The position numbers and the translations under genes were made by a program. Positions 23,897 to 47,005 of a stretch of 64,000 bases of DNA are shown piece by piece (the first letter of the stretch is position 1; each line of letters opens with the position of its first letter). The notes beneath the pieces were generated by a model. It worked only from the letters and a program-made list of their open reading frames with translations, searched no databases and was not told where the DNA came from. Origin of the DNA: an uncultured Methanosarcinales archaeon (GTDB taxonomy: Archaea > Nanobdellota > Nanobdellia > Woesearchaeales > GW2011-AR9). The stretch spans positions 10,491 through 74,490 of the forward strand of contig CAYHXT010000001.1 of the NCBI GenBank assembly GCA_964360675.1, read 5' to 3'.

Positions 23897-23912
23897 TTAT
23901 TTGAGAATCAAA

Positions 23913-25448
23913 TTATTTCCGCTTCATTTTATTTTTTGATAATTTATTTCTTATCAGTTTCTTAAAGTTGAAAGTGTAATATCCTATATAATTAAAGATA
24001 CGATAATCTGTCTTCTTTAATGCGACCAGTAATTCAAATGGAAGGGGCGGTATAAGGAAAAATCCCTTATATGTCTTTGAAGTAAGAAAGAAATTTACCA
24101 TCCATCGTGGATATAATTGCAGACTTTTCATCATAAATTGAAAATTTTTAATCAACCTTGCTGCTTTTTTATCTTTTACTGAACCGCCGGTAATGTAAGT
24201 GTTCTGCGCTCCTTGTTCAGCTTCTTTGACTTGTTCATCAGTCGCGCTAGTTTTCTGCAGAACCGAAGTGGAAGGGAAATATTGCAGCCAGTAACAAGTA
24301 ATCCTTACCGGCCTGTATTTGTTGAATAAACGTATCGCAAATTTCATGTCCTCTTCAGTTTCACCAAAGCCGAACATCATGTCGACATAGAAATTAAGCT
24401 TATATTTGCTGCAGGCCTTAAGAGCATTGATGATATCTTCAGTAGTCTCAATTCTAGTCATCATTTTTCTCTTAATTTCCTGATTGAAAGTCTGAATGCC
24501 CATCTCTAACTTATAACATCCGCTTTCTTTCAATAGTTTTGCTATTTCATCATCAACGTGAAGCGGATGAGTTATGGCTCGGTAAGGGACATTAATCTCT
24601 AGTTTATATTTTGGCAAAAATTTACGCAGCCATTCTTTATCATGGGTGAATATGTCATCTTCAAAACTGACATACTTGAACTTGTATTTCTGTTTAGCTA
24701 GTCGCAATTCTCCTAAGACATGTTCCGGGCTTCTTCTGCGGACGTATCTGTGCGCATCTTTTACATATAATTTACGCAGAAGATTATGGCAGCAGAAACT
24801 ACATGCAAAAAGGCACCCTCTGGCAGTTGCAATCATGTAATGCTTCATTGGCACATGGGGCGCAAACAACGCTTTATTTGGATAAGGTAAAGAATCTAAA
24901 TCTTGTTTAAGAGGCCTTACTGGATTTCCCATAGCCTTACCGTCTTTCTTATACCATACATTGGGAATAGCATAATTAGGTTCCTTCTTTTGTATTGAAG
25001 CCAGCAGTTCCAGAAGAGAATCTTCCGATTCTCCAACTACAACGTAATCAACACAGTCTTCCTGTACAGTTTTCTCAGGGACTGAGGTAGGATGAATGCC
25101 TCCGAAAATAATCGGTATATTTTTCGCTTGTTTCATTTTGCGTGCTATATCTAAAGCCCATTGATTACAGTCTGAAAATACCGAAAATAATACTATGTCC
25201 GGATTGGTCGCCAGTACATCTTCTACGATGTTTTTATATTTGAATAATTTTGCAAGGAAAGGTATTTGAAGATAATACTTGTCATCAAACAAAGCAGGAT
25301 CAAAAACCAACGCAGTTTGGTGTCCATGTTTCTCCAACATAGCGGAGAGACTTTCGATGCCGAGATTCTCAGCGCCCATATATAAGAAAGTGACTTTCAT
25401 CTTTTTAGGGGAAGAATACTTGTTTTTAAACTTTTCTAGTCTTTGCAA
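23913..25448 (-). CDS. B12-binding (cobalamin) radical SAM enzyme
   Basis: CLFACSFCCH, a CxxxCxxC radical SAM cluster motif, preceded by a B12-binding-like N-domain. 511 aa. The start may be the internal MKVTFLY. Confidence 0.75.
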   Translation of the reverse strand: MQRLEKFKNKYSSPKKMKVTFLYMGAENLGIESLSAMLEKHGHQTALVFDPALFDDKYYLQIPFLAKLFKYKNIVEDVLATNPDIVLFSVFSDCNQWALDIARKMKQAKNIPIIFGGIHPTSVPEKTVQEDCVDYVVVGESEDSLLELLASIQKKEPNYAIPNVWYKKDGKAMGNPVRPLKQDLDSLPYPNKALFAPHVPMKHYMIATARGCLFACSFCCHNLLRKLYVKDAHRYVRRRSPEHVLGELRLAKQKYKFKYVSFEDDIFTHDKEWLRKFLPKYKLEINVPYRAITHPLHVDDEIAKLLKESGCYKLEMGIQTFNQEIKRKMMTRIETTEDIINALKACSKYKLNFYVDMMFGFGETEEDMKFAIRLFNKYRPVRITCYWLQYFPSTSVLQKTSATDEQVKEAEQGAQNTYITGGSVKDKKAARLIKNFQFMMKSLQLYPRWMVNFFLTSKTYKGFFLIPPLPFELLVALKKTDYRIFNYIGYYTFNFKKLIRNKLSKNKMKRK

Positions 25449-25604
25449 TAATTAAAAATTAGCAAGAATGTTTAGATTTTATTTCTTAAAATAATATCTT
25501 TGTGTTGCTAATTAGACCTAACTGATCTCATCACGTATCACATCACCAAAATGCAAAGCGCTTCTACGCCGTTGTCGCTTTACCAATTATCCTTTTTATC
25601 TATT

Positions 25605-26894
25605 TTATTTTGTGGTCTTATTTTCTCCGACTTCTTTTTTAAATTGTTCAATCCAATAGTTGATCCTATCTTCAGTAAGGTTGGGATGCTTAAATAACGG
25701 CTGTTTGCTCTCTAATATCTGATTGTACGATTCCCAGTTATCGGACTTAAAAATATCCATCCCAAACTTTTCCGGATTCCCCCATAATGGCGTCGACGGG
25801 CTAGGGACTAATTTGTAAATATCAGTGATGAATTTTTTGCCCCATTTTTGTTTTAAGTCTTTAGCCCAGTTAATCGTTTCTCTCATAGTTTCATCAGTTT
25901 CACTTGGCAAACCGCATATGAAAAATCCCTTTATGCCTAGGCCATATTTCATGCACATATCTATTCCTTTTTCTTGTTGCGCTACTGACATATATTTATT
26001 CATAGCCTTCAAAACAGTGTCTGAACCAGATTCTATACCTAATGAAATCCATTTGCAACCAGCTTCAGCCATGGCTTTACACAGTTCTTCAGATAATGTG
26101 TCTGCTCTAGTTGTTGCCCTAAATACGACGTCTGGAAATTCAGTTTTCATCAATTTACATAAATTAATGAATCTCTCTTGGTCTGATTTTCTTGGAGATG
26201 TTATGACATCATCAGCAAAATAAAATCCTCTTACACTATATTTTGTGTAAAGTAATCTTAATTCTTCCATTACATGTTCAAAACTTCTTGGCCGCCATTT
26301 TTTTATTTTTGCTGAACCGCAATAGCAACAATTTGCGTAACATCCGCGGCTGGTTATTACAATAGCGCCTTTTTTACCTTCAACAGTCATGAAATATCTT
26401 TCAAATTTAATCCCTTCGTAATCCGGCATTGGCAGCGTATTTAGGTCTAAACTTTTACCGCCATCTATCAATTGCTGCTGGGGCTTATCTCTAATCACCT
26501 TCAATAAAGCTTCTTCCCCATCTCCCGTAATTACATAATTAAACACTTTTAAAGTCCTTTCTTCGCGAGGGTTATCGGTAATGTGGTTGCCGCCAGCCAC
26601 TAAAACATTATTTTCGTGTTTAAACTGTTTTGCTAATTCTAAAACCTGAAAATAGTTTGGCGTCGAAACTGAAAAACAGATGAATTTAGGGTCGTATCTG
26701 AAAATAAACTCTTTCAAACTATCTTCAGTATCATGATTTAAATCAAATATTTTGGTCTCATATCCCTGCTGTTTTAGATAAGCTGAAAGTTGTGCTAAAG
26801 CTAATGGGCATCTATCACCAAGATTTCCGCCCGTTTTTTCTAGATATTTATCTCTTGGATTTATCAGGCAAATCATATTTTTCACGCACTTCAC
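25605..26894 (-). CDS. B12-binding radical SAM enzyme (paralog)
   Basis: CYANCCYCG radical SAM motif after an N-terminal Rossmann-like B12 domain. 429 aa. Confidence 0.75.
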   Translation of the reverse strand: MKCVKNMICLINPRDKYLEKTGGNLGDRCPLALAQLSAYLKQQGYETKIFDLNHDTEDSLKEFIFRYDPKFICFSVSTPNYFQVLELAKQFKHENNVLVAGGNHITDNPREERTLKVFNYVITGDGEEALLKVIRDKPQQQLIDGGKSLDLNTLPMPDYEGIKFERYFMTVEGKKGAIVITSRGCYANCCYCGSAKIKKWRPRSFEHVMEELRLLYTKYSVRGFYFADDVITSPRKSDQERFINLCKLMKTEFPDVVFRATTRADTLSEELCKAMAEAGCKWISLGIESGSDTVLKAMNKYMSVAQQEKGIDMCMKYGLGIKGFFICGLPSETDETMRETINWAKDLKQKWGKKFITDIYKLVPSPSTPLWGNPEKFGMDIFKSDNWESYNQILESKQPLFKHPNLTEDRINYWIEQFKKEVGENKTTK

Positions 26895-26915: not shown

Positions 26916-27980
26916 TCAAACTCCTTTTCCTTTAGCAAGCTCTTCTTGAGGCAGGATTATTTTATTAATAAAATTAACCGTCCATTCTGTCACACTAATT
27001 TTATCTTCCAATAATCTCTTGCGCTTACTCTTCCATTCTTCTTTTAAATTAGGATTATTTAGCATTTCTTCCACACGAAGGAGTAATTTTTTCCCGTCAA
27101 CAATCTTTTCAACGAGATGATATTTATTGGACTCTTCTTCAAGATAGCTGGTATTCAGGTTATTGATGTAAATGGTAGGGATTCCCAATACTGCGGCTTC
27201 TGAAGCAACACTTGCCCCTTCACTGATAACCAAAGAGGAAAAAGCTATAATATCCATAAAATCTTTTGAATCAATTCTCAATAAATATTTTTGTAAATCT
27301 GTGGGGGCTAGATTATCCTCCGCAGAGATAAAAACTTTTCCAAATCTCTCCAGCAGTTGGATGAGTTTCTTTTTATCATCCAGCCCTAACCGCTTCACAT
27401 TAATATCATGGCTGGAATCCCATGATACAAATCTGACTACAAAATATTTTTCGTTGGCTGCAATTCCAATCTTTCTTAATGTTTCTTCCGACGGCGTATA
27501 ATAATCAGGATGCAGGTAAGCTAATTCTTTATAACCATTAAAACGAACATGTTTTTTCCCATAATCATCAGTATAACAACTTGGCGTGCACATTTTTGTG
27601 ATGAATGGGAGTGTAAGGATTTTAATTATTATGGTTGCATGTTCAGCATCATAGAAACTTATTGAAGGTTTTCTTAGCAGCCTACCGACCGGGGCTATGC
27701 TCATGCCCCCAAACCCAATTAGTACATCTGGCCTGAATTTCTTTGCTAGTTTGAGTAATTTGTAATTGTGCTGGCATAATTCCAAAGCAAGCCCCAAGAG
27801 CCCTTTTCCTTTAGTGCTAAGAATGGCGTGTTTAATCCCATAATCGTCCAATAAGTCAACAATAACATCTTTGTTACGGGAAGTTACTAGCACTTGGTGG
27901 CCTGAATCTTCCATGCGCCAAATAAAATTCTTGAAAAAATGGACTTCCGCAGGATGCCATAAGTCGACAATAATATTCAT
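26916..27980 (-). CDS. DUF354-like GT-B fold protein (putative glycosyltransferase/epimerase-associated)
   Basis: N-terminus MNIIVDLWHPAEVHFFKNFI. 354 aa with a two-Rossmann-like layout. Confidence 0.4.
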   Translation of the reverse strand: MNIIVDLWHPAEVHFFKNFIWRMEDSGHQVLVTSRNKDVIVDLLDDYGIKHAILSTKGKGLLGLALELCQHNYKLLKLAKKFRPDVLIGFGGMSIAPVGRLLRKPSISFYDAEHATIIIKILTLPFITKMCTPSCYTDDYGKKHVRFNGYKELAYLHPDYYTPSEETLRKIGIAANEKYFVVRFVSWDSSHDINVKRLGLDDKKKLIQLLERFGKVFISAEDNLAPTDLQKYLLRIDSKDFMDIIAFSSLVISEGASVASEAAVLGIPTIYINNLNTSYLEEESNKYHLVEKIVDGKKLLLRVEEMLNNPNLKEEWKSKRKRLLEDKISVTEWTVNFINKIILPQEELAKGKGV

Positions 27981-29284
27981 TTTCTTCCTACCCCATAATA
28001 AGCAAATCCTTCTTCTTTTACCAGTTCCGGCTCATAGATATTTCTTCCGTCGAAAATAACTTTCTCTTCCATCAGCTTCCCGAGTTCTGCAAAGTTGATG
28101 CTTCTGAATTCATCCCATTCCGTGATCAGCACTATCGCCGAACTTCCTTTGGCGGCTTCTTCTACTGAATCGCAGTAGATGATACGTTTATTGAATATTT
28201 TTTCCGCTTCCCCAATAGCAGCGGGGTCGTATGCCTTTACTTTTGCCCCGGCGGAAAGAAGATCAAGGATTATTCGGATGGACGGCGCTTCCCGCATATC
28301 ATTGGTCTTTGGCTTGAATGAAAGGCCGAGAACGCTGAACGTCCTTCCTGCAATGTCGCCGTTGAAAACAGCAGTTATTTTTTGCACCATCCTTTTCTTC
28401 TGCCGTTCATTTACGGCATCCACTTCCTCAAAAAGCTTAGCGTGATATCCTTTCTGTTTAGCAGTAGCTATCAGCGCCTTGACATCTTTTGGAAAACAGC
28501 TGCCTCCGTAGCCAACTCCAGGGTTCATGAAACGGGGGGAGATCCGGTAATCCATACCCAAAGCCAGAGTTACAATCTTTACATCGGCTTCGACTTCATC
28601 GCAAATATTGGCCATCTCATTGATGAAAGAAATCTTAGTCGCTAGGAAAGTGTTATTGGCATACTTAATCGTCTCTGCCGTTTCCCAGTCTGTTTCAACG
28701 ATGGGAAGATAAGTTCGTAATCTCCCAGAATATACTTTTCTCATTATGGCCAGCGCCTTGTCGGAATTGCTGCCAAGCACTATTTTGTCGGGATAATTGA
28801 AAGCTCTTACTGCGTCGCCTTCGCGTAAAAATTCAGGATTAGCCACGACGTCAAAAATAATCGGCGTTTTAGTATTTTCGGCGATTATCAAAGCTGTTTT
28901 TCTGGTAGTTCCAGGCGGCACAGTACTTTTATTGACCACAACTTTGTATTCTTTTATGTTTTCTCCGATGGTCTTGGCGACCGCAAACACGTAACGGAGA
29001 TCTGCCGAACCATCTTCGCTGCAGGGCGTATTGACGCAATTGAATATGACTTCGCCAAAATTGGCCGCTTCCGTCGCATCAGTAGTAAACCGCAATCTCC
29101 CCTTTTTTTTGTTTTGGGCGACTAATTCAGGTAAACCCGGCTCGAAAAAAGGGAATTTTCCTTCCTCCAGCGATCTGATTCTTTCCTTATCTACATCCAT
29201 GCATAAGACGCTGTGACCAAGATTAGCTAAGCATGCAGCCGTAGTAAGCCCCACATAACCTACGCCGAAAACGCTGATTTTCAT
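27977..29284 (-). CDS. UDP-sugar 6-dehydrogenase (UDP-ManNAc/UDP-glucose dehydrogenase family)
   Basis: MKISVFGVGYVGLTTAACLANLGHSVLCMDVD NAD-binding N-terminus and a catalytic GGSCFPKD motif. Confidence 0.8.
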   Translation of the reverse strand: MKISVFGVGYVGLTTAACLANLGHSVLCMDVDKERIRSLEEGKFPFFEPGLPELVAQNKKKGRLRFTTDATEAANFGEVIFNCVNTPCSEDGSADLRYVFAVAKTIGENIKEYKVVVNKSTVPPGTTRKTALIIAENTKTPIIFDVVANPEFLREGDAVRAFNYPDKIVLGSNSDKALAIMRKVYSGRLRTYLPIVETDWETAETIKYANNTFLATKISFINEMANICDEVEADVKIVTLALGMDYRISPRFMNPGVGYGGSCFPKDVKALIATAKQKGYHAKLFEEVDAVNERQKKRMVQKITAVFNGDIAGRTFSVLGLSFKPKTNDMREAPSIRIILDLLSAGAKVKAYDPAAIGEAEKIFNKRIIYCDSVEEAAKGSSAIVLITEWDEFRSINFAELGKLMEEKVIFDGRNIYEPELVKEEGFAYYGVGRK

Positions 29285-30012
29285 TTTTCATACTCCTTTT
29301 TTGCTTCTTCTAGCGATTCAAAGTTTCCGATGTCGAACCAGTGCTGATCAAATACAAATCCGTGCACTTCAGAGTTTTTTGCCAAATATCTTATGAGGTT
29401 TCCCGGCGCATCAGCTTTTTCTGTTTTGACCAATGTTTCGATATGGAAAATATCTTCTTTCTTAAACAGGTAACACGCCGTACTAGCCAGGGAACTTTTT
29501 GGTTTAGCTGGTTTTTCTTCAAAATCTATTATTCTGCTCCCGTCAAGTATTCCCACGCCGTATTTTCCTTTTACTTTTTCCGGATTCTTGAGGTCATGAA
29601 AAGCTACCACTGAAGAATTCTTCTGCCGGAAAAAATGCACCAGTTCCGGAAGAGGGAACCCAAAAAGATTATCTCCGGCTATGACCAACAGATCGTCTTT
29701 AATCCTTTTATGTTTAATTACGAAATGGATGTCCCCTATTGCGCCCAGGCGGTCTTCATTGCTTTTAGTGCCGTCATTTATCATTTCAATCCTAAGCGGA
29801 GTTTTTATATTTTTTTCCGCCGCGATAAAGGAGGGATAGAATTTGTCGTTGGTTACTATATACACTTCTTTAATATTTTTAATTTCTTCTATCTTAGAGA
29901 GAATATGTTCAATTATGAGCTTATTGCCCACTTTTAGAAGGGGTTTGGGCTGATGTTCTGTCAATGGATAAAGCCTAGTCGCATAACCAGCCGCTAATAT
30001 GAGTGCCTGCAT
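29281..30012 (-). CDS. sugar-1-phosphate nucleotidyltransferase
   Basis: MQALILAAGYATRLYPLT motif. 243 aa. Confidence 0.7.
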   Translation of the reverse strand: MQALILAAGYATRLYPLTEHQPKPLLKVGNKLIIEHILSKIEEIKNIKEVYIVTNDKFYPSFIAAEKNIKTPLRIEMINDGTKSNEDRLGAIGDIHFVIKHKRIKDDLLVIAGDNLFGFPLPELVHFFRQKNSSVVAFHDLKNPEKVKGKYGVGILDGSRIIDFEEKPAKPKSSLASTACYLFKKEDIFHIETLVKTEKADAPGNLIRYLAKNSEVHGFVFDQHWFDIGNFESLEEAKKEYEK

Positions 30013-30109: not shown

Positions 30110-30230
30110 GAGTGGACAGCTTACCGGGGTTCCCGCACACTAATGCAGTAAAGCCCAGTACGGAGACGCGCTTAACTTCGGAGTTCGAAATGGGATCCGG
30201 TGAACCACGCCCCTATGACCGTCCATATGC
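30110..30230 (-). rRNA. rrf: 5S ribosomal RNA (orphan copy)
   Basis: The reverse complement reads ATGGACGGTCATAGGGGCGTGGTTCACCGGATCCCATTTCGAACTCCGAAGTTAAGCGCGTCTCCGTACTGGG...GGGAACCCCGGTAAGCTGTCCA. It contains the universal CCCAT(T/A)CCGAAC..GAAGTTAAGC loop B/C core. Helix I ends pair (TGGACGG / CTGTCCA). Confidence 0.7.
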
Positions 30231-30311
30231 TTAGTTTTTCCTTCCATTTAAAAAGATTACGACTTTTTTTTCATAATTCTTTAAATAACAGCCATAATTC
30301 TTACCATAATA

Positions 30312-32099
30312 ATGGTGGTTCTGGATACGGCAATTATTCTGGCGGGCGGGTTAGGAGCCAGACTCAGGCCTCTTACAGAAGCAATCCCCAAACCTTTAGT
30401 TCCGGTTCACGGAAAACCTATCCTTGAACATACCATCAAACAGCTTTCCAAACACGGCGTTAAGAACATTATCATTTCTGTTGGATATAAAGCTCAACAA
30501 ATCATGGAATGTTTTGGCGATGGTTCAAGATGGAAGCTTAAAATATCTTATATTGTGGAATTAGAACCTTTGGGTACCGGCGGCGCAGTTAAAAAAGCAG
30601 CGTTGGGATTACAAAAACCTTTCCTGTTGGTTTGGGGGGATAATCTGATGGATATCAATTATTCTCAGATGAAGAAAGAGTTCTATGAAAATAATGCTTC
30701 CATCATGATGGCGCTCACGCACCGGGAAGATGTAGAAAATTTCGGGGTGGCCAAATTAGATAAAAATAAAATTGCGGCTTTCATAGAAAAGCCAAAACGG
30801 GAAGATGCTCCCTCCACTTTTATCAATGCAGGAGCTTTTGTCTTGGATCCTTCCTGCCTGAGAATTCTACCTGAAGGCAAGTCTTCTATTGAAAAGGATT
30901 GTTTTGAAAAGCTGGCTTTGCTGGGAGAGATATTTGCATTCATCCACAAGGGGCAATGGTTCCCTACCGATACGCTGGAAAAGTATCATCATGCCAACGC
31001 TTATTTTCAGCCAGATATCAATCTAAAAGAAAAAAAGGTAATCATTGCCGACGTGGACGACACTATCTGCGAAACCTGCCAGCAGATTTCTGCAGAGATG
31101 GCTGAACAAATCTCGCGCATGATCAAAAATGGATATGAATTTGCCTTTATCAGCGGAACTAAAATAGATGATCTGCAAAAAATGATATCTTCAAGGGTAA
31201 AAGGCAAACATCATCTTCTGGCTACAACCGGAACCAATTATGCCGTAGTGGAGGATGATAAAGCGGAAGTAAAATATGCTCTTCTTTTCTCAGAAGAAGA
31301 AAAAAAAGAAATCCTGCTTGCATTTGAGAAATTAATATCTCATTTTAATATAAATTCTGTTACCACCAAAGAAGATCAGCTGCAGGACAGAGGTTCGCAA
31401 ATCACTCTTTCTGCCATCGGCCGAAACGCGCCGTTGGAATTGAAACAGAAATACGACCCCGATGCCTCAAAGAGGAAAACATGGGTTGAATTTCTAACGT
31501 GGCATCTGGATGAAACCAAATACGATATAAACATCGGCGGAACTACGTCCATAGACGTGACGCGCGGCGGGTCGGATAAAGAGCAGGGCATAAGAAAGTT
31601 CGCTGAGCACAATGCCTTTCCGCTGGACAGCATTCTCTTTATAGGAGATAAAATCTTTCCCGGAGGAAACGATTTTCCGGCAACTAAAATAGTTGATTGT
31701 ATTTCCGTTAAATCTCCGTATTATACCCTCAAGGAATTGCGGAAACTAGAAATTATGAACGAGATTATAACTGTGGAAAAACCATGGGGAAATTTTGAAC
31801 GATTTACCTGCAATGGCCCTTCTACAGTGAAAATATTGGAAATCGAACCGAATAATCGGCTTTCATTACAATCTCATCGGCATCGCGATGAGTTATGGGT
31901 GGCGCTCGATGAGGGGGCAGTCGCAGAAATAGATGGCTTGAAATTCCCCCTTAATCGCGGCGGAAAAATAGTTGTGCTTAGGGGCACGAAACATCGCATT
32001 TATTCTGCCAACGAGAAAGTAAGGGTGTTAGAGATATCTTTTGGTATTTTTAACGAAGATGATATAATAAGATATGAAGATGATTTCGGAAGAATTTAA
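30312..32099 (+). CDS. tri-domain fusion: mannose-1-phosphate guanylyltransferase-like NTP-transferase + eukaryotic-type (HAD-IIB) phosphomannomutase + C-terminal cupin (type II PMI-like)
   Basis: Residues 1-230: VLDTAIILAGGLGARLRPLTEAIPKPL. Residues 235-455: VIIADVDDTICE (DxD HAD motif I), TSIDVTRGGSDK and FPGGNDFP, which parallel eukaryotic PMM FDVFPEGWDK / SPGGNDFE. Residues 470-595: WGNFERF...SLQSHRHRDELW cupin. Confidence 0.65.
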   Translation: MVVLDTAIILAGGLGARLRPLTEAIPKPLVPVHGKPILEHTIKQLSKHGVKNIIISVGYKAQQIMECFGDGSRWKLKISYIVELEPLGTGGAVKKAALGLQKPFLLVWGDNLMDINYSQMKKEFYENNASIMMALTHREDVENFGVAKLDKNKIAAFIEKPKREDAPSTFINAGAFVLDPSCLRILPEGKSSIEKDCFEKLALLGEIFAFIHKGQWFPTDTLEKYHHANAYFQPDINLKEKKVIIADVDDTICETCQQISAEMAEQISRMIKNGYEFAFISGTKIDDLQKMISSRVKGKHHLLATTGTNYAVVEDDKAEVKYALLFSEEEKKEILLAFEKLISHFNINSVTTKEDQLQDRGSQITLSAIGRNAPLELKQKYDPDASKRKTWVEFLTWHLDETKYDINIGGTTSIDVTRGGSDKEQGIRKFAEHNAFPLDSILFIGDKIFPGGNDFPATKIVDCISVKSPYYTLKELRKLEIMNEIITVEKPWGNFERFTCNGPSTVKILEIEPNNRLSLQSHRHRDELWVALDEGAVAEIDGLKFPLNRGGKIVVLRGTKHRIYSANEKVRVLEISFGIFNEDDIIRYEDDFGRI

Positions 32100-32177: not shown

Positions 32178-32441
32178 TTAAGCTTCGTCTTCGTCAGATT
32201 CTTCAGAATCTTCACGAGGCGTTTCTTGCACAGGACTAGCTTGTCCTTTCTCAAGCAATTGAACATTTTGAGCTTGCTTTCCTCGTTCGGTGTCGACAGC
32301 ATCGAAAGATACTTTATCGTTTTCACGTAATCTTAATCCTCGAGGCACTGCAGTGTAGTGCACAAAGTATTCCTGTCCATCAGTTGAAACGATGAAACCG
32401 TATCCTTTTTTTCCGTCAAACCATTTTACTGTTCCTTCCAT
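32178..32441 (-). CDS. cspA: cold-shock protein (CspA family) with acidic C-terminal extension
   Basis: MEGTVKWFDGKKGYGFI...VHY RNP motifs. GGAGGAG SD 7 nt upstream of the internal ATG chosen as start. About 25-aa Glu/Asp/Ser-rich tail. Confidence 0.85.
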   Translation of the reverse strand: MEGTVKWFDGKKGYGFIVSTDGQEYFVHYTAVPRGLRLRENDKVSFDAVDTERGKQAQNVQLLEKGQASPVQETPREDSEESDEDEA

Positions 32442-32609
32442 TTTATTTACTCCTCCTAAAGAATACGCCCGGCAAGATACCCAGCGCATTTACTTGTGTT
32501 TCCTTATCCAAACCATCTGATTTATAAATCTACCCCTCATTAATTTGATTTTTGAGTAGACTAATAGTTTTGAACGCCCCACGGAAAATCTAACCTTAAA
32601 TTTCCGTAA

Positions 32610-33729: not shown

Positions 33730-35484
33730 GTGAAGATTTCTAAAACATTTGGATATTTGTTCTTAATTTTCCTGCTAGCTCTAATTTTACGATTTCTTGC
33801 GGCTTCCTATGTTGATGTGGGCACCGATGAGATGATTTATTCCATCATACCGCTGAATATCATTTCTGCCGGAAGGCTGGGAACGGTAGAGCAGTCTCCA
33901 TTATATTTTTATTTGGCCGATGTCGGATATACCTTTAGTGGAGGTTTAGGACAAATTACTGCTCGGTTGCCTTCCATTATTTTTGGTTCGCTGGCGGTTT
34001 TTTTAGTGTATCTGCTTTCCTTGGAAATGTTTGCTAATAAGAAAGCCGCTTACATCTCTTCGTTTTTGTGGGCGTTATCGGGATATGCGTTGCGGCACAA
34101 TGGTGAGATGGATATGTCTGCTTTTTTCTTTGCTTTATTGAGCCTGTTTTTGTTTATTCGCGCCCTTAAAACCGAATCGCCGAAGTTTTTTTATCTCTCA
34201 GCCATTAGTTTTGGTTTGGCAGTAATGATAAAAAATATTGTGGTCCTATTTGTTCCCGCTTATTTGTTGGTTTTTTGGCTGAAGCAACGAAAAGAAAAAG
34301 CTCTTTCCAAGTCTGCGCTAAAAACAATGATTATAAGCGTGGTTATTTTTCTAGCAGTGCTGATCCCTATATTTGCTTATAATTACCTCACTTATACTTA
34401 TACTAAAGAAGGAATAACCGATGTTTATTTTTCTACTATGCTGGGCATAGGCAAGACCGTACATGCGGGCATGGAGTCTAAACCCTGGGAGTTCTCAAGA
34501 GTATTGCATGTGACAAAAGAGATATTTACGCAATTATTTAAATGGGAAATAATCACTGTCATAGGCGGAGCTCTTGGTACTGCCCTCTGCCTGCGAAAAA
34601 ACAATTGGGTGAAATATAAAGAAGGTTTCCTGCTACTATGGATTTCGTTATTATCTCTTCCTGCTTACGTGGGTGGTTCGACAGCCAGTTCAACACATTA
34701 TTTGTGGGTCCCTATGGTTTTAAGTATTTTTGCTGGATACGGTATTTTTTCAGTTCATGAAATGATATTAAAGAGATTTTCTTTTAAGTATAGTTTGCAT
34801 CTAATTTTGTTAATAGCTATAATAATAAATGTCTTATTTTTCAGTTGGCTAGTACAGAAATATACTTCTGCCAGCACGGTTCCTTTATGGGAATTTGTGC
34901 ATGAAAACATTCCTGAAGATGCTATAGTGGTTATCGATCCGCGGATTTATAGAGGCGTTAATGCTTGGGTTTTTAACGACCGACATTATTTAGAAGGGGG
35001 GCATTTCCCATTGTTGCAGGAAGCTATTGAAAAATCCGCAGGAGCAAAGCAAGAAATCCCCCTTTATTATTTAGAATGCGGCAAGGATAGCGACTACATC
35101 TACTGTGGATGGAAGCCGGAAGATTTTGAAAGAATAAAAAGTGCCGGAGAACAGCTTAGCGCATTTTTAGTGCCGTCGATGCAAAAAGTTGCAGAGATAA
35201 AAACATCAACCCATTTCGTGCTTTACCAAGGGACTATCAATGCTCCGCGACGAGTTTACAACTTCATTGATGGAACCCATACGTTCTGGTTTTATCCGGT
35301 GGGTTGGAGGGGCGGGTCAGCAGTAGATGATTATACTGCCCGCGGAATTGGTGTTTTAGTAAATTTACTGGGGTTCCTAGTGCTCTATCTGGATCTGCTC
35401 TTAGCTTTGGCAGCGATACCGTTTGTTTTTTATCTAACGAATAAAAGGGGGGAAAATATTACTCCTCAAGAAAACAAACAATGA
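33730..35484 (+). CDS. GT-C superfamily membrane glycosyltransferase (ArnT/PMT-like), third paralog
   Basis: 584 aa. N-terminal polytopic region with an early acidic loop (DVGTDEM), a C-terminal soluble domain, then two further TM helices. Confidence 0.5.
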   Translation: MKISKTFGYLFLIFLLALILRFLAASYVDVGTDEMIYSIIPLNIISAGRLGTVEQSPLYFYLADVGYTFSGGLGQITARLPSIIFGSLAVFLVYLLSLEMFANKKAAYISSFLWALSGYALRHNGEMDMSAFFFALLSLFLFIRALKTESPKFFYLSAISFGLAVMIKNIVVLFVPAYLLVFWLKQRKEKALSKSALKTMIISVVIFLAVLIPIFAYNYLTYTYTKEGITDVYFSTMLGIGKTVHAGMESKPWEFSRVLHVTKEIFTQLFKWEIITVIGGALGTALCLRKNNWVKYKEGFLLLWISLLSLPAYVGGSTASSTHYLWVPMVLSIFAGYGIFSVHEMILKRFSFKYSLHLILLIAIIINVLFFSWLVQKYTSASTVPLWEFVHENIPEDAIVVIDPRIYRGVNAWVFNDRHYLEGGHFPLLQEAIEKSAGAKQEIPLYYLECGKDSDYIYCGWKPEDFERIKSAGEQLSAFLVPSMQKVAEIKTSTHFVLYQGTINAPRRVYNFIDGTHTFWFYPVGWRGGSAVDDYTARGIGVLVNLLGFLVLYLDLLLALAAIPFVFYLTNKRGENITPQENKQ

Positions 35485-35691: not shown

Positions 35692-36135
35692 ATGAAAGAA
35701 ATTGAGAACGTGGAGTACAAAGGCAGGACTTTGGCCGTAGTTGTGCGGGCTCATGCCCTGCGCGAGCTTAAATCAGCAGGAAATAAAGTTTCCTTTGCCA
35801 CTCCAGAACACTTCCCCCTTCAAATGGGCATTCACGCCAGACTTAAAGGTGACATAGTTTCTGCCCACTTCCACAGGCCTTTTCAGGAGCTGAAAAATCT
35901 GCCAGTTCAAGAGTTTTTTCATGTTAAATCTGGAAAAGTCAAGATAGAATTATATGATGAGCGGGAAAATGATGCAAAAGTGTCGGAAATTATTGCTGAA
36001 GATGGCGACATGTTAATCTTAAACACCGGACACGGGATGACTTTTTTAGAAGATACTGAATTGGTGGAATTAAAGCAAGGGCCTTACAGAGGAAGAGAAG
36101 AAGAAAAAAGATTCGTTGGCGGGGTAAAAAAATGA
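35692..36135 (+). CDS. WxcM-like cupin (FdtA-type NDP-4-keto-6-deoxyhexose 3,4-ketoisomerase candidate)
   Basis: 147 aa single cupin barrel (HxH-like SAHFHRP, FHVKSGKVKIELYD) located directly upstream of a DegT aminotransferase. Confidence 0.5.
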   Translation: MKEIENVEYKGRTLAVVVRAHALRELKSAGNKVSFATPEHFPLQMGIHARLKGDIVSAHFHRPFQELKNLPVQEFFHVKSGKVKIELYDERENDAKVSEIIAEDGDMLILNTGHGMTFLEDTELVELKQGPYRGREEEKRFVGGVKK

Positions 36136-38432
36136 AATTTATCCCGGTATGTGAGCCGACGTTGAATGGAAATGAGCTTTCGTATATCATCGATGCGGTA
36201 AAATCAGGCTGGATATCTTCTTCAGGAAAATACCTTCAAGAGTTTGAAGACAAATTCAGCGCTTACTGCGGCGTGAAATATGGCATAAGCTGCGCTAATG
36301 GAACGCTAGCTATCCATCTTGCTTTATTAGCAGTGGGTATCAAGGAAGGTGATGAAGTTATTCTTCCGTCTTTTACCATGATTGGTTCCTGCAATCCGAT
36401 CGTGCAGATCGGAGCAAAGCCGGTATTCATAGATTCCGAATTGCAGACTTGGAATATAGACCCAGCGAAGATAGAAGAGAAAATCACCGCTAAAACCAAA
36501 GCCATAATGGTGGTTCATACCTATGGGCATCCGGTAGATATGGATGCGGTATCAGCTGTTGCCAGAAAACATAATCTGATAGTCATTGAAGACGCGGCCG
36601 AAGCGCATGGGGCTGAATACAAAAGCAGAAAAACCGGTTCTCTTGCAGATATTGCCGCTTTCAGTTTTTATGCTAATAAGATTATCACTTGTTTTCCCCC
36701 CTCCACAAAAATATTAATAGAACCCCCCAAGGGAAATAAGGGATCTAGTCGAATGAAAGATATTAAAGATTTAGAAGTTGGGGATAGTGTGCTTACTTAT
36801 GATATCGATACTTCTGCTAAGGAATATAAGAAAATAACGAGAACCTTTGAAAGAGAGTATCACGAGCAGATGGTTAACCTTTTTTTTTCAAATAATAATA
36901 AGTTATGTATGACTCCAAATCATCCGGTTTATGTTATTAATAAAGGCTGGGTGCCTGCAGAACTATTAAAGATTGGCGACGAGGTGATCCAATATAATTA
37001 TCGCGGACTTGCATACAAAGAAATGCATGCTGGCAAAACTTATGATTCTATCATGGGCAAGGAAGAAGCCGAAAAGAAGCGTAGAAACCATTCGCTGGCA
37101 ATAAAGCAAAGGCATAAGGACCCCAGATCCGGATATGCACGAATTGATAAGGTTTTAGTAGCTCTAAAAATCGGCAAAGCAAACAAAGGGAAAAAACGTT
37201 CTGAAGCTCAAAAAAAGAGATTACATAATTCTCAGTTATTGCGATGGGAAATGATGAGCCCAGATAAATACCAAGAATTCTGTAAAAAGATGAACCTAAT
37301 CAATTCCAATCCAGAAATTAGACTGAGAAAGAGTGCAGTTGCTAAAAAATTGGTCCAAGATCCGGAATATATTAAGCGTGTGAGTGCTGGTGTGAAAAAA
37401 GCTATGCAGAAAGAGTCTTATTGGAAAAATTATGCCAAGGGAATGAATTTTAAACCAAACAAACCGGAACAACTCCTCCTTACCTTTCTGGAGGCGCATT
37501 TCCCAGGAGAATTCGGATATAATGGCGACTATCGGTTAGGAGTAAGAATTGACAGGCTTATCCCAGACTTTGTACATATAAAAGGAAAAAAGAAAGTTAT
37601 AGACCTTCTCGGGAGTTATTGGCATACCAAAGATGAATTCTTTACACGGAGTAAAAGATATAAAAAATACGGCTATGATTGTCTTATTTTGTGGGAGCAA
37701 GAACTGAAAAATAAAGAAATGTTGAAGGAGAGAATTAAGACCTTTATTTATAACCCAAATATCAAGATTGTGAAAGTCGCAAAAATCACCACAAAAGAGT
37801 ATACTGGTAAAGTTTATAATCTAGAAACTGAAAAAAACCATAATTATTTTGCGCATGGCATTCTAGTTCATAACTGTGGAGAAGGGGGCATGGTCGTTAC
37901 CAATAATGAGCAGTGGGCAGAAAGAGCGCGAAAATTGCGAAACCATTTCTTTGGCGAGCCGCGATTTTTACATCAGGAAGTAGGATATAATTATCGGCTC
38001 ACTAATATGCAGGCAGCCATCGGATTGGCGCAGCTGGAAAAGATAGAATACTATGTTGATTCCAGAAGGAGAAATGCCCAATTGTACAATTCCTTGCTGA
38101 AAGATGTTCCCGGAATAATCCTGCCTCCAGAAGCATCCTGGGTCAAGAATGTGTATTGGATGTACGGCGTTTTATTAAATAATGATTTTCCATTGACCAT
38201 GCCGCAATTGAGAGAAGAGTTGCAGAAGAAAGGCGTTGAAACGAGAACTTTTTTTATAGGCATGCATAAACAGCCGGCATACAAAGAGCTGGGCGTTAAC
38301 GGCGAATTTCCTAATGCAGAATATCTAGGAGAGAATGGTTTTTATCTGCCGTCTTCCAGCCATTTGACTGAGGAACAGATTAGGTATATTACGGCGACCA
38401 TTAAGCAAATTTATGAGGAGCATAAAAAATGA
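36132..38432 (+). CDS. DegT/DnrJ/EryC1/ArnB-family PLP-dependent sugar aminotransferase, interrupted by a 395-aa intein
   Basis: N-extein: MKFIPVCEPTLNGNELSYIIDAVKSGWISSSGKYLQEFEDKFSAYCG...AAFSFYANKIIT. C-extein: CGEGGMVVTNNEQWAERARKLRNH. ArnB-like enzymes have the contiguous motif SF(H/Y)xxKxIT-C-xEGG. Combined extein length is 371 aa, the normal family size. Confidence 0.8.
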   Translation: MKFIPVCEPTLNGNELSYIIDAVKSGWISSSGKYLQEFEDKFSAYCGVKYGISCANGTLAIHLALLAVGIKEGDEVILPSFTMIGSCNPIVQIGAKPVFIDSELQTWNIDPAKIEEKITAKTKAIMVVHTYGHPVDMDAVSAVARKHNLIVIEDAAEAHGAEYKSRKTGSLADIAAFSFYANKIITCFPPSTKILIEPPKGNKGSSRMKDIKDLEVGDSVLTYDIDTSAKEYKKITRTFEREYHEQMVNLFFSNNNKLCMTPNHPVYVINKGWVPAELLKIGDEVIQYNYRGLAYKEMHAGKTYDSIMGKEEAEKKRRNHSLAIKQRHKDPRSGYARIDKVLVALKIGKANKGKKRSEAQKKRLHNSQLLRWEMMSPDKYQEFCKKMNLINSNPEIRLRKSAVAKKLVQDPEYIKRVSAGVKKAMQKESYWKNYAKGMNFKPNKPEQLLLTFLEAHFPGEFGYNGDYRLGVRIDRLIPDFVHIKGKKKVIDLLGSYWHTKDEFFTRSKRYKKYGYDCLILWEQELKNKEMLKERIKTFIYNPNIKIVKVAKITTKEYTGKVYNLETEKNHNYFAHGILVHNCGEGGMVVTNNEQWAERARKLRNHFFGEPRFLHQEVGYNYRLTNMQAAIGLAQLEKIEYYVDSRRRNAQLYNSLLKDVPGIILPPEASWVKNVYWMYGVLLNNDFPLTMPQLREELQKKGVETRTFFIGMHKQPAYKELGVNGEFPNAEYLGENGFYLPSSSHLTEEQIRYITATIKQIYEEHKK
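36690..37874 (+). mobile_element. intein (Hint domain with embedded DUF559/Vsr-like PD-(D/E)XK endonuclease and NUMOD3-like DNA-binding repeats)
   Basis: Begins with Cys (CFPPSTKIL...). Block B TxxH-like NHPVY. Ends ...GILVHN followed by +1 Cys. Internal KRRNHSLAIKQRHK and GKKRSEAQKKRL (NUMOD3-like). IPDFVHIKGKKKVIDLLGSYWH...YGYDCLILWE is a DUF559/Vsr-like pattern. Confidence 0.7.
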
Positions 38433-39145: not shown

Positions 39146-39525
39146 ATCTTAGCTCGGAGTTAAAGAAAGATTTATTCCGCTATGTCAAATTTTTATTCGG
39201 CGGCGGGTTAAGCCTGCTGTTGAATCTGCTTATAACTTACTCGCTGACGGAATTCCTGCAGTTATGGCATATGCTTTCATTCGGCATCGCGTTAGGATGC
39301 GAAATCCTGTTTCTTTTTGTATATCATTCTTATGTCACTTTCAGGAAGGATGGCAAATTTTTGGTTTTTGCTTTAGTGGTCTTGTTTATAAGCGGCCTGA
39401 ACTGGATGTTTGTATATCTGCTGACGGAATTACTGGGTGTTCCTTATTTATATGCGATTGTAGTTTCTGCTGCGGCGATCTCTGTGCTGAACTATGGATT
39501 AAATAAGAAGATCGTGTTCAAATGA
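39142..39525 (+). CDS. GtrA-family small membrane protein (lipid-linked sugar flippase candidate)
   Basis: 127 aa with 4 TM helices. KFLFGGGLS N-terminal motif typical of GtrA. Coupled to the upstream GT2. Confidence 0.6.
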   Translation: MNLSSELKKDLFRYVKFLFGGGLSLLLNLLITYSLTEFLQLWHMLSFGIALGCEILFLFVYHSYVTFRKDGKFLVFALVVLFISGLNWMFVYLLTELLGVPYLYAIVVSAAAISVLNYGLNKKIVFK

Positions 39526-46950: not shown

Positions 46951-47005
46951 ATTGGCTGCATTGCGCAAGTTTAAAAATATTTCTAAAGATGGTTCTATCT
47001 ATCCC

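Follow-up and report, generated by a model that had tools for sequence, protein, structure and literature searches.

A single protein of a DPANN archaeon probably carries out, as predicted from its sequence, all three steps that lead from fructose-6-phosphate (F6P) through mannose-6-phosphate (M6P) and mannose-1-phosphate (M1P) to GDP-mannose. The gene for this putative trifunctional enzyme (30312..32099, forward strand, stop codon at 32097-32099) lies within a 64,000-nucleotide stretch of DNA that was analyzed at its full length (the window) and encodes 595 amino acids. Along the chain, an NTP_transferase domain is followed by a HAD-IIB domain of the phosphomannomutase (PMM)/alpha-phosphoglucomutase (alpha-PGM) family and then by a PF01050 cupin of the type II phosphomannose isomerase (PMI) kind. 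An earlier note on this DNA had proposed one polypeptide with three domains in this order, and the intact open reading frame and the Pfam domain matches, all of which exceed their gathering scores, bear this out.

In the pathway that we propose, the C-terminal cupin would act first, as a metal-dependent type II PMI that converts F6P to M6P. Next, with D247 as the phosphorylated residue and a hexose-1,6-bisphosphate as the primer, the HAD domain would turn M6P into M1P in the ping-pong manner, with cap closure, that is known for PMM1/PMM2 and the Lactococcus lactis alpha-PGM. Finally, the N-terminal domain would use M1P and GTP to form GDP-mannose and PPi, and the GDP-mannose would feed the surrounding glycan locus. 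We infer these enzymatic activities, the sugar and nucleotide specificities, and any channeling between the active sites. What we observe are the domain identities, the conservation of catalytic residues, a recurrent architecture, and modular fusion and fission with mannose-pathway partners.

An intact and recurrent three-domain gene

The reading frame opens with an ATG and contains neither internal stop codons nor frameshifts between 30312 and 32099, and thus the frameshift between domains that had been considered as a possible flaw is absent. Upstream, a TATA-box-like element, TTTAAATA, can be read at 30280..30287 (forward strand), with its center approximately 28 nt 5′ of the ATG. This element is a putative archaeal promoter, and the mRNA would be leaderless or have a short leader. 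The earlier note had assumed a bacterial host. The labels of homologues and contigs instead identify a DPANN (Woese/Nanoarchaeota) archaeon from groundwater. A search of the window for RNA genes gave no tRNA, and a 5S RNA was the sole Rfam match.

An identical 595-amino-acid protein is called on five public contigs, and its neighbors are unchanged on the 64,845-bp contig Hain_H52_02um_R2_157 (ENA ERZ1292622). A database search for the same architecture, as had been suggested, returned approximately 44 clusters of 590 to 620 amino acids that have all three domains, come from independent assemblies, and share 57-89% identity. Likewise, one continuous frame encodes the three domains in nine species-representative genomes. 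Because the same fusion recurs in these clusters and genomes, the architecture is not an assembly artifact. Split or frame-disrupted versions do exist (L017, L020, L039, and L036), as might be expected if misassembly or a sequencing frameshift had joined separate genes, but the chance that the three-domain frame arose in this way is practically negligible given the repeated occurrence of the fusion and a full-length AF2 model that is compact (pLDDT 89, pTM 0.84).

Conservation was counted in an alignment of 121 sequences, with the cupin columns drawn from the 47 cupin-bearing members. By these counts, the catalytic residues of all three domains are nearly invariant.

The N-terminal nucleotidylyltransferase domain

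Domain 1 (aa 1-233; 30312..31010, forward strand) is a Rossmann-like sugar-1-phosphate nucleotidylyltransferase that matches Pfam NTP_transferase (PF00483) over aa 7-230 (E = 5.6e-42). It displays the signature G12-G13-L-G15-A-R17-L-R-P-L-T22 together with P26-K27-P28, G109-D110, and E159-K160-P161, and 119-121 of the 121 sequences share the residues G12-G13-x-G15-x-R17, K27, D110, E159-K160-P161, and D220. The G-G-x-G-x-R-L-x-P-L-T...PKP signature and the GD and EKP motifs are shared with GMPPB, VTC1, and Rv3264c, whereas the C-terminal left-handed beta-helix domain of those proteins is missing here.

The best NCBIfam model for this domain is man1P_GTase_Rv (NF052502), at 153 bits against a cutoff of 440 for a model whose C-terminal domain is absent from this protein, followed by Arch_glmU (149 bits) and rmlA_long (134 bits). 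The domain stays below every NCBIfam equivalog cutoff, including that of the mannose-1-phosphate guanylyltransferase model. Foldseek places VTC1 (7x8j) and GMPPB (7d72) as the best NTP matches, with the UGPase 8x7s equal to them, and 8x7s, the CDP-glucose enzyme 1tzf, HddC, and GMPPB all match at approximately 1e-28 to 1e-29. Enzymes for GDP-mannose, UDP-glucose, CDP-glucose, GDP-heptose, and MurNAc thus score alike, and neither NCBIfam, nor the PDB sequence search, nor Foldseek separates the sugar or nucleotide specificity of the domain. That its scores fit several sugars and nucleotides without meeting an equivalog cutoff counts against the mannose reading. Regardless, we propose that domain 1 is a mannose-1-phosphate guanylyltransferase that would catalyze the final step of the pathway.

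By these sequence comparisons, domain 1 is GMPPB/RmlA-like and not ManC-like. The view that a HAD domain had been inserted into a bacterial ManC/PMI enzyme therefore had to be given up: TIGR01479 matches essentially the last 110 residues, and the N-terminal domain resembles Rv3264c/GMPPB, archaeal GlmU, and the long form of RmlA. For the whole protein, TIGR01479 gives 66.8 bits against a cutoff of 372.95, with the best stretch confined to aa 486-593.

The central HAD domain

Domain 2 (aa 242-480; 31035..31751, forward strand) is identified by profile, PDB, and Foldseek searches as a HAD-IIB domain with a C2B cap. Pfam hardly distinguishes PMM (PF03332; aa 340-478, 4e-11, 43.6 bits) from Hydrolase_3 (aa 244-447, 5e-11, 43.2 bits), and NCBI names relatives merely "HAD-IIB family hydrolase." Both facts would suit a phosphatase of the HAD type, whether Cof-type, MPGP-like, or one for sugar phosphates, in place of a mutase, and the earlier note had already raised the first two of these. 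However, a HAD-only profile is far better matched by the PMM/alpha-PGM family, of which 17 sequences align over their full length (1e-37 to 2e-12), than by the best Cof-type protein, which reaches 1.2e-4 over half of the domain. The same search yielded zero MPGP matches. Furthermore, the Cof model gives 46.9 bits against a cutoff of 137, and the Arg/Lys triad of the cap that binds the distal phosphate is invariant. We consequently regard a phosphatase as very improbable, and by sequence criteria domain 2 is a member of the PMM/alpha-PGM clade of HAD-IIB proteins and not of the Cof/MPGP phosphatases.

Its closest solved relative is the L. lactis alpha-PGM (PgmH/APGM; 4bnd), the best match in sequence, profile, and fold: 6e-24 in the PDB sequence search, 1.2e-37 and 133 bits with the HAD-only profile, and a TMt of 0.84 (E = 3.8e-22, rmsd 2.8 Å over 254 columns) when Foldseek compares the AF2 model with it. 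Fifteen eukaryotic PMM sequences match the profile over their full length at 2e-20 to 2e-12, with 50-77 bits. The domain had been called a eukaryotic-type PMM. This description is right as to the PMM/alpha-PGM family, but the nearest member is bacterial (133 versus 50-77 bits). Nor does the fusion newly suggest HAD-type mutase chemistry in bacteria, as had been claimed, because the L. lactis alpha-phosphoglucomutase already established that bacteria use HAD-type hexose-phosphate mutases. Standalone homologues are common in Sphingomonadales.

All three motifs that had been quoted from this region are present: DVDDT at aa 247-251, TSIDVTRGGSDK at aa 412-423, and FPGGNDFP at aa 449-456. HAD motif I, DVDDT (31050..31064, forward strand), was aligned to PMM2 and APGM. 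D247 corresponds to PMM2 D12, which confirms the expected position of the nucleophile, and is found in 121/121 sequences; D249 corresponds to D14 (120/121). By analogy, D247 is the likely phospho-acceptor nucleophile and D249 the likely general acid/base. T283 of motif II is invariant or nearly so in the same alignment. The stretch TSIDVTRGGSDK (31545..31580, forward strand), assigned by alignment and conservation, contains S413 (PMM2 S179), D415 (D181), D422 (D188), and the motif III lysine K423 (K189). HAD motif IV, GDKIFPGGND (aa 445-454; 31644..31673, forward strand), is an invariant Mg2+ ligand region that includes D446 (D209), N453, and D454 (D217). The nearly invariant set among the 121 sequences is D247/D249/T283/R360/R371/K378/S413/D415/K423/D446/N453/D454.

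The phosphate-binding stretch of the cap (aa 360-378; 31389..31445, forward strand), located by conservation and alignment to PMM2, holds R360 (PMM2 R123), R371 (R134), and K378 (R141), each present in 121/121 sequences. In PMM2, R134 and R141 bind the distal phosphate in the cap, and the R141H change inactivates the enzyme (PMC4263888). Thus two of the three PMM2 arginines for which a check had been suggested are kept, and the third is replaced by lysine. The substitution counts against the mannose reading, as does the replacement of Arg21 by cysteine, although the active L. lactis enzyme likewise has lysine at the Arg141 position.

The cysteine belongs to a clade-specific CxxC motif, C253-E-T-C256 (31068..31079, forward strand), recognized by conservation and by alignment to PMM2 and APGM. 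C253 occurs in 121/121 sequences and C256, which aligns with PMM2 Arg21, in 107/121. PMM2, APGM, and the bacterial/HAD-cupin clade lack the motif and have R or K at this position. Arg21 of PMM2 is a core "clasp" residue (PMC4263888). The segment that contains the CxxC motif (aa 250-256) is the sole internal segment of the AF2 model with a pLDDT below 50.

Among the residues of PMM2, D12, D14, R123, R134, S179, D181, D188, K189, D209, K210, N216, and D217 are kept. PMM1, PMM2, and Sec53 (PF03332) share family and fold with domain 2 and presumably the reaction, the interconversion of M6P and M1P via a bisphosphate. In contrast to these eukaryotic PMMs, domain 2 has Lys for Arg141 and Cys for Arg21 within CxxC, lacks a 3-residue insertion after the cap arginines, and is fused to other domains in a prokaryotic host, in addition to its weaker profile match. 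The L. lactis APGM and domain 2 are alike in their DxDxT motif, C2B cap, Lys at the Arg141 position, and indels (e.g., the DPD segment), but APGM is a standalone protein of 252 amino acids whereas domain 2 is fused on both sides. The two also differ at PMM2 positions 134, 179/181, 188, 210, and 21, which are Q, T/N, N, M, and K in APGM and R, S/D, D, K, and C in the window protein. We propose that domain 2 is a phosphomannomutase that would interconvert M6P and M1P as the middle step of the pathway.

The C-terminal cupin domain

Domain 3 (aa 484-595; 31761..32096, forward strand) consists of one cupin barrel and belongs to the C-terminal family of type II PMIs. It matches Pfam MannoseP_isomer (PF01050) over aa 486-590 (4.7e-15, 56.2 bits against a gathering score of 23.6, covering profile positions 10-116 of 116) and positions 357-466 of the 467 in TIGR01479 (2e-14). 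Motif 1, QSHRHRDELW (aa 520-529; 31869..31898, forward strand), was recognized by its conservation: each of the residues Q520, H522, R525, E527, and W529 is shared by no fewer than 45 of the 47 members that have the cupin. Motif 2, H561-R562 (31992..31997, forward strand), occurs in 47 of 49 aligned sequences, and at least 45 of the 47 members keep H561 and R562 as well as EDDIIRYEDDFGR at the C terminus. Q520, H522, and E527 are candidate metal ligands and H561 is a candidate fourth ligand, an assignment by analogy with PMI, whose zinc site is made up of Gln/His/Glu/His.

A cupin-only AF2 model is an all-beta barrel (pLDDT 81.7) whose Foldseek neighbors are small cupins, including the Thermococcus "phosphomannose isomerase" entries 7zvm and 7zvy. 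FdtA/FdtD/QdtA 3,4-ketoisomerases, RmlC, and CapF are also found, with E-values level with those of the Thermococcus cupins. The PDB sequence and profile searches gave only marginal matches, the best being 7zvm, annotated as a mannose-6-phosphate isomerase (E = 0.002), and returned no close homologue that is solved or characterized. These generic structural neighbors, which include nucleotide-sugar ketoisomerases, count against the pathway reading.

They fit instead a cupin that has a regulatory role or that acts on a nucleotide sugar in the manner of the ketoisomerases and epimerases FdtA, QdtA, and RmlC, so that the protein would take M6P through M1P to GDP-mannose and then modify this product. 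The abundance of deoxy-sugar enzymes at the locus and the lack of a solved type II PMI domain for comparison in the PDB searches also leave room for this explanation. Its chance of holding is nevertheless slim. The sequence family is that of PF01050 and the TIGR01479 C terminus, and the Q-x-H...E...H set fits a metal site of the PMI type. Moreover, HAD-cupin proteins exist without a nucleotidyltransferase, also in association with GH130, a setting that yields no nucleotide sugar, and a PGI/PMI module is interchangeable at the cupin position. We therefore propose that domain 3 is a mannose-6-phosphate isomerase, which would interconvert F6P and M6P in the first step.

Modular rearrangements among relatives

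Most relatives are approximately 478 amino acids long and have no fused isomerase, which counts against the pathway reading. Two relatives, P0053 and L011, have in place of the cupin an SIS module of approximately 350 amino acids that is non-homologous to it and passes the TIGR02128 model "bifunctional phosphoglucose/phosphomannose isomerase" (217.2 bits against a cutoff of 213.9). Outside of this module, these two proteins are 65-67% identical to the window protein. The SIS-fold enzyme, which the window protein lacks, follows the NTP-HAD portion just as the cupin does, and its presumed role is the same (formation of an aldose-6-phosphate from F6P).

The HAD and cupin domains are also found together in other contexts. 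They are fused without an NTP_transferase in L029, P0154, P0175, and P0227, fused in reversed order in P0136, and encoded by abutting genes in L033, where the cupin has its own ATG and the split is genuine. GH130 beta-mannoside phosphorylases release M1P, and a domain of this family (PF04041, 3.6e-30) is fused in P0243 to a HAD-cupin portion that is 34% identical to that of the window protein. The GH130-linked relatives have S/D, the PMM state, at PMM2 positions 179/181.

Two further candidates for split genes were set aside. L017 had been considered as an NTP-HAD gene with a separate cupin gene, but it is a frame-disrupted fusion, because the first in-frame start codon (3839) falls inside the cupin homology, which begins at 3770. 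A 349-amino-acid gene located 3′ of the two-domain form in L002 had been considered as a split PGI/PMI, but BLASTP against the C terminus of P0053 gave an E-value of 2.5, and Pfam returned zero matches for it. A related fusion of an NTP_transferase with a GHMP kinase occurs in P0129 and, like the fusions to PMM and PMI modules, is indirect evidence for GTP and M1P as the substrates of domain 1.

Genomic neighborhood and the choice between mannose and glucose

The fusion gene lies in a glycan locus with two Gmd-type dehydratases, a GT2/GtrA/GT-C polyprenyl-phosphate-sugar system, and other glycosyltransferases. Divergent from it on the reverse strand is a pair of genes (27977..30012) for a short NTP_transferase of 243 aa (29281..30012), which shares 24% identity with domain 1, and for an overlapping UDP-glucose 6-dehydrogenase (27977..29284). 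L001, L002, and most DPANN loci likewise have this pair 5′ of the fusion gene, and the dehydrogenase operon is the most conserved neighbor of that gene. Farther along the window, a gmd operon on the reverse strand comprises gmd (45838..46968; TIGR01472, 393 bits), a methyltransferase identified by Pfam (45094..45825), and, as its last gene, a standalone NTP_transferase (44396..45097) that is a paralogue of domain 1 (BLASTP, 54% identity over 232 aa, E = 5e-99). On the forward strand, Pfam and TIGR01472 identify a protein (40430..42673) that joins a C-methyltransferase to a second GDP-mannose 4,6-dehydratase domain (aa 427-740). This dehydratase domain gives 337 bits with TIGR01472 versus 57 bits for dTDP-glucose dehydratase, and the protein is a predicted consumer of GDP-mannose.

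Parts of this neighborhood would fit a glucose pathway, in which the HAD domain has the alpha-phosphoglucomutase function of L. lactis PgmH, domain 1 makes UDP-, dTDP-, or GDP-glucose, the product supplies the adjacent UDP-glucose dehydrogenase, and the cupin is a glucose-6-phosphate isomerase or an accessory domain. The nearest characterized homologue of the HAD domain, 4bnd, is far ahead of other solved matches and is reportedly glucose-specific. The dehydrogenase operon, whose pair of genes adjoins the fusion gene across all architectures, needs glucose-1-phosphate. Both points count against the mannose reading. Likewise, domain 1 matches the UGPase 8x7s as well as it matches GDP-mannose pyrophosphorylases, and the bifunctional PGI/PMI of P0053 could equally provide glucose-6-phosphate.

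We nonetheless consider the glucose pathway unlikely and favor mannose because the cupin falls in PF01050 and in the C-terminal PMI part of TIGR01479, outside of the cupin-PGI family, and because the PGI/PMI module replaces this cupin in two relatives. The mannose reading also draws on the GH130 mannoside phosphorylase fused to a HAD-cupin relative and on the tendency of HAD and cupin to travel together. Within the window, it is supported by the domain-1 paralogue that closes the gmd operon and by the presence of two Gmd-like GDP-mannose consumers. Residues S413 and D415 (PMM2 positions 179/181) side with the PMMs and not with the T/N of the L. lactis alpha-PGM, and the UDP-glucose dehydrogenase is already served by a translationally coupled NTP_transferase of its own. 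A mutase that takes both mannose and glucose phosphates, as in a mixed version of the two readings, would be compatible with the mannose pathway, and a HAD-type PMM of Trypanosoma brucei handles both sugars (PMC3465800).

We also entertain, as a doubtful extension, the combined proposal that the fused HAD domain is the sole hexose-phosphate mutase of the organism and takes both sugars, that it feeds its own guanylyltransferase as well as the divergent UDP-glucose pyrophosphorylase/dehydrogenase pair, that the DPANN-specific CxxC motif, located where PMM2 has its Arg21 clasp on a flexible loop beside the nucleophile, controls the closing of the cap as a redox or metal switch, and that intermediates are handed intramolecularly among the three active sites. 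If this were true, a small protein would serve as a regulated hub through which a genome-reduced symbiont obtains all of its nucleotide-hexoses.

Relation to known enzymes and implications

The ManC/CpsB, AlgA, and XanB enzymes (TIGR01479) resemble the window protein in joining a nucleotidyltransferase and a C-terminal PMI cupin on one chain, and their cupins share the QxH..RxExW, HR, and EDDIxRxxDxxGR motifs with domain 3. In contrast to them, the window protein has no linker/beta-helix region, and its 240-amino-acid HAD domain adds a step that ManC-type enzymes lack. Within the limited literature collection that was searched, no trifunctional enzyme or DPANN GDP-mannose fusion is described. 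Confirmation of its activities would make this the first described enzyme to take a glycolytic intermediate to GDP-mannose through all three steps. Genome-reduced DPANN archaea would then make a mannose donor for their surface glycans rather than scavenge it. The "eukaryotic" HAD-type PMM family would likewise gain a broad prokaryotic branch, one whose members combine modularly with nucleotidyltransferases and isomerases, each of two kinds, and with a mannoside phosphorylase. In addition, a soluble 68-kDa protein that converts F6P and GTP to GDP-mannose would be useful for enzymatic nucleotide-sugar synthesis, and hundreds of database entries now called "HAD-IIB family hydrolase" or "sugar phosphate nucleotidyltransferase" could be renamed.

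A single reading frame with three sugar-nucleotide modules

The fusion gene at 30312..32099(+) is a frame of 595 codons that begins with ATG and has no internal stops. Five public contigs have an identical protein among their gene calls, and one of them (ENA ERZ1292622 'Hain_H52_02um_R2_157', 64,845 bp, from a groundwater 0.2-um-fraction assembly) also carries the same neighbors. Three Pfam modules were found without overlap, each above its gathering score: NTP_transferase at aa 7-230 (E = 5.6e-42), a HAD-IIB region matched equally by PMM PF03332 (aa 340-478, 4e-11) and Hydrolase_3 (aa 244-447, 5e-11), and MannoseP_isomer PF01050 at aa 486-590 (4.7e-15). The unbroken frame and the three domains bear out the proposal that one polypeptide carries all three modules, and the motifs cited for it are present at aa 247-251, 412-423, and 449-456. 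That the three-domain ORF is an artifact is extremely improbable.

A TATA-like element (TTTAAATA) lies about 28 nt 5' of the fusion-gene ATG. Just past it, on the opposite strand, is a 5S rRNA gene (RF00001, 64.5 bits; 30111..30226(-)), and this lone gene separates two divergent sugar-nucleotide operons; no 16S rRNA, 23S rRNA, or tRNA genes were found within the 64-kb window. Directly 3' of the fusion gene, in convergent orientation, is a gene whose product has a cold-shock domain and a long acidic tail of Ser, Glu, and Asp (32178..32489(-)), for which the public gene call is shorter (87 aa).

The earlier note assumed a bacterial host. This assumption is wrong because the nearest homologues of the fusion protein (57-89% identity) come from MAGs named Nanoarchaeota, Woesearchaeota, or Nanoarchaeia, the closest 37 loci among species-representative genomes are also from DPANN archaea, and the neighborhood has an archaeal character, with DUF354, Agl-like GT2/GtrA/GT-C genes, and an aminotransferase that contains an intein. 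Seven contigs (L004-L007, L008, L011, and L015) carry the DPANN-type gene at 65-74% identity under the deposit name 'uncultured Methanosarcinales archaeon' or, in one instance, 'Candidatus Nomurabacteria bacterium'. These records are probably mislabeled or mis-binned.

The middle domain belongs to the phosphomannomutase family

When searched against solved structures, the isolated HAD domain matched only PMM-family proteins, with the L. lactis alpha-phosphoglucomutase (alpha-PGM) structure 4bnd at 6e-24 and eukaryotic PMMs at 2.5e-10 to 2e-3. With a profile of 22 family members (A1), full-length matches were obtained to 4bnd (1.2e-37) and to 15 PMM sequences (1.8e-20 to 2e-12). The top Cof-type phosphatase reached 1.2e-4 with half of the domain covered, and mannosyl-3-phosphoglycerate phosphatase gave no match with this profile. 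An AlphaFold2 model of the whole fusion protein (46-sequence alignment A2) has a mean pLDDT of 89 and a pTM of 0.84, and its top Foldseek match in the PDB is again 4bnd (TMt 0.84, E = 3.8e-22).

Residues were compared with the 246-aa human PMM2, in which R21, R123, R134, R141, D12, D14, S179, D181, K189, and D209 fall at their published numbers. The fusion protein aligns D247 with PMM2 D12, D249 with D14, T283 with S47, R360 with R123, R371 with R134, K378 with R141, S413 with S179, D415 with D181, D422 with D188, K423 with K189, D446 with D209, and N453/D454 with N216/D217. All of these residues are invariant or almost so in an alignment of 121 sequences. In PMM2, one phosphate of the bisphosphate intermediate is bound by Lys189 and the other by Arg134 and Arg141, and the two domains are held in a clasp by Arg21 and Arg141 (PMC4263888). 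Two of these arginines differ in the fusion protein. Arg141 is replaced by Lys, as it also is in the active L. lactis alpha-PGM, and Arg21 by Cys256, which closes a C253-x-x-C256 motif specific to the clade (31068..31079, aa 253-256). C253 is present in 121 of 121 sequences and C256 in 107, and the motif lies inside aa 250-256, the sole internal low-confidence loop of the model.

Across the prokaryotic branch of the PMM family, the residues at PMM2 positions 21 and 134 vary together. In the DPANN clade, position 21 lies within the conserved CxxC and is Cys, Thr, Val, or Ala, and position 134 is Arg. In the bacterial and HAD-cupin clade, position 21 is Lys and position 134 is Gln, Met, or Gly. 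Eukaryotic PMMs have Arg at both.

Neither a better fit to Cof-type or mannosyl-3-phosphoglycerate phosphatases nor a loss of the PMM arginines as a group, which the earlier note had named as grounds for rejection, was what we found, and it is very unlikely that the HAD domain is a phosphatase. Family membership thus stands, but "eukaryotic-type" is too strong a description because the domain falls in a prokaryotic branch whose nearest characterized member is the bacterial alpha-PGM.

The flanking domains

The N-terminal domain retains all hallmarks of a sugar-1-phosphate nucleotidylyltransferase, which are invariant in the family alignment. Its specificity cannot be read from database scores: the NCBIfam models man1P_GTase_Rv (153 bits), archaeal GlmU-type (149), and RmlA-long (134) all score below cutoff; UGPase, the CDP-glucose enzyme, HddC, GMPPB, and VTC1 all match among PDB sequences at about 1e-28 to 1e-29; and Foldseek groups VTC1, 8x7s, and GMPPB together. 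The match to TIGR01479 (ManC-type GMP/PMI) is essentially limited to the final 110 residues, and therefore the protein is not a ManC-type enzyme with a HAD insertion, as had been proposed.

At its C-terminus the protein has one cupin domain (AlphaFold2 pLDDT 81.7) with the conserved motifs PWG, S-L-Q520-S-H522-x-x-R525-x-E527-x-W529, H561-R562, and EDDIxRYEDDFGR. Its Q/H/E/H set presumably parallels the zinc ligands of PMI. The Foldseek neighbors are generic small cupins, including the 110-aa Thermococcus 'phosphomannose isomerases' 7zvm and 7zvy as well as nucleotide-sugar ketoisomerases, and therefore the PMI assignment rests on sequence family and context. A cupin without an isomerase role is improbable.

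A probable route from fructose-6-phosphate to GDP-mannose

We consider it probable that the fusion protein is a three-step enzyme that makes GDP-mannose from fructose-6-phosphate (F6P). The alternative, a glucose-nucleotide pathway, is unlikely, but it draws on alpha-PGM being the nearest characterized enzyme to the HAD domain, on this L. lactis enzyme being reportedly inactive on mannose phosphates, and on a UDP-glucose dehydrogenase operon being the most conserved neighbor of the fusion gene. Several observations count instead for mannose. The cupin partner of the HAD domain is of the PMI family and the alternative isomerase partner is PGI/PMI, and a HAD-cupin homologue (P0243) is joined to a family of mannose-1-phosphate-releasing enzymes. 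The gene for UDP-glucose dehydrogenase overlaps one for an NTP-transferase of its own, which is just 24% identical to the N-domain. A gmd-methyltransferase operon 12 kb from the fusion gene ends with a standalone N-domain paralogue that is 54% identical. Two Gmd-type GDP-mannose 4,6-dehydratases are encoded in the window (TIGR01472, 393 and 337 bits). Finally, every prokaryotic relative, the GH130-linked one among them, has the PMM state S/D at PMM2 positions 179/181, with L. lactis alpha-PGM alone carrying T/N. A dual role in which the HAD domain also feeds a UDP-glucose branch is plausible, because HAD-type PMMs from T. brucei (PMC3465800) and P. falciparum (HAD5) can also serve as PGM, and would be compatible with GDP-mannose synthesis.

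In the proposed GDP-mannose route, the cupin would turn F6P into mannose-6-phosphate; the HAD domain, phosphorylated at D247 and primed by hexose-1,6-bisphosphate, would convert this to mannose-1-phosphate through cap opening and closing; and the N-domain would combine the product with GTP to yield GDP-mannose. This pathway order runs opposite to the domain order along the chain. The high pTM suggests that the domains may be held in a fixed arrangement, and channeling between the active sites might be imagined.

Distribution of the fusion and related architectures

Three forms were seen in a collection of 5.8 billion proteins: the three-domain form (~44 clusters), an NTP+HAD-only form of ~478 aa (>70 clusters), and one 829-aa protein (P0053) with a SIS module after NTP-HAD (bact-PGI_C, 6.5e-37). 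This module exceeds the cutoff of TIGR02128, bifunctional phosphoglucose/phosphomannose isomerase (217.2 versus 213.9 bits), and locus L011 has the same architecture. When species genomes were scanned with the HAD profile and arrangements were classed by reading frame, nine loci had the fused NTP-HAD-cupin form and many had NTP-HAD. Other arrangements include HAD-cupin without NTP (L029, a clean 376-aa ORF), NTP-HAD with a separately ATG-initiated cupin gene directly after it (L033), a frame-disrupted copy (L017), NTP and HAD in adjacent genes (L020, L039), standalone HAD genes at several DPANN loci, and standalone 255-273-aa homologues (~38% identical) in Sphingomonadales bacteria. The latter genes are widespread in this order (L041-L083; e.g., L042 at 2980..3744, and L080 on a Sphingobium plasmid).

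Among 1.84 billion representatives searched exhaustively with HMMER, NTP+HAD occurred in just one 50%-identity cluster (P0121), and therefore the fusion is limited to one tight lineage. More divergent HAD-cupin proteins (P0154, P0175, P0227; 33-36% identity) were recovered by this search, as were a protein of reverse order, cupin-HAD (P0136, 340 aa), and a HIGH-type cytidylyltransferase fused with HAD (P0124, 398 aa). The search also brought up P0243 (986 aa), in which the HAD-cupin pair is fused with a beta-mannoside phosphorylase domain of family GH130 (PF04041, 3.6e-30), a putative catabolic chain from mannoside to F6P. In P0129 (620 aa), the NTP-transferase subfamily of the N-domain is joined to a GHMP kinase. 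These last four proteins (P0136, P0124, P0243, and P0129) are further unreported fusions of the same modules.

Each domain of the fusion protein belongs to, or stands near, a known family, and GMP+PMI fusions and prokaryotic HAD-type mutases are already known. The novelty lies in having the three steps together on a single chain and in the way the HAD mutase serves as a module that takes alternative partners. No description of a three-step fusion was found in the searchable literature, and related proteins are named just 'HAD-IIB family hydrolase' in databases.

Other genes in the window

Two PMT_2/GT-C glycosyltransferases, a GT2 resembling dolichyl-phosphate-hexose transferases, and a GtrA flippase-like gene (33730..35484(+), 38429..39525(+), 2042..3529(-)) form a predicted polyprenyl-phosphate-sugar glycosylation system, which could be a user of the GDP-mannose. 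A DegT/LegC-family sugar aminotransferase (36132..38432(+)) is split by an intein (Intein_splicing, aa 208-581) with both N- and C-terminal splicing motifs, and its extein halves match TIGR04181 (3e-99). A 747-aa protein (40430..42673(+)) fuses a sugar C-methyltransferase (Methyltransf_13/23/14) to a GDP-mannose 4,6-dehydratase (TIGR01472, 337 bits), which suggests a C-methylated 6-deoxy-GDP-sugar pathway on a single chain.

A 755-aa protein (13690..15957(+)) combines a pyruvate-kinase barrel, a PUA_2 domain, and ATP-sulfurylase. Together with a nearby sulfotransferase gene (17653..18462(+)), this odd sulfate-activation fusion hints at sulfated glycans. Unusual for a glycan locus is the architecture of a 961-aa protein (9283..12168(+)) with a cytidylyltransferase-like N-terminus, a PPDK_N ATP-grasp domain, and a PEP-utilizer mobile domain. 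The region 23294..26894 holds a tandem pair of B12-binding radical SAM genes (23913..25448, 25605..26894) adjoined by a ferredoxin-DUF4346 (pterin-binding-like) gene (23294..23896), and a DUF4346 gene is also near the fusion gene at locus L002.
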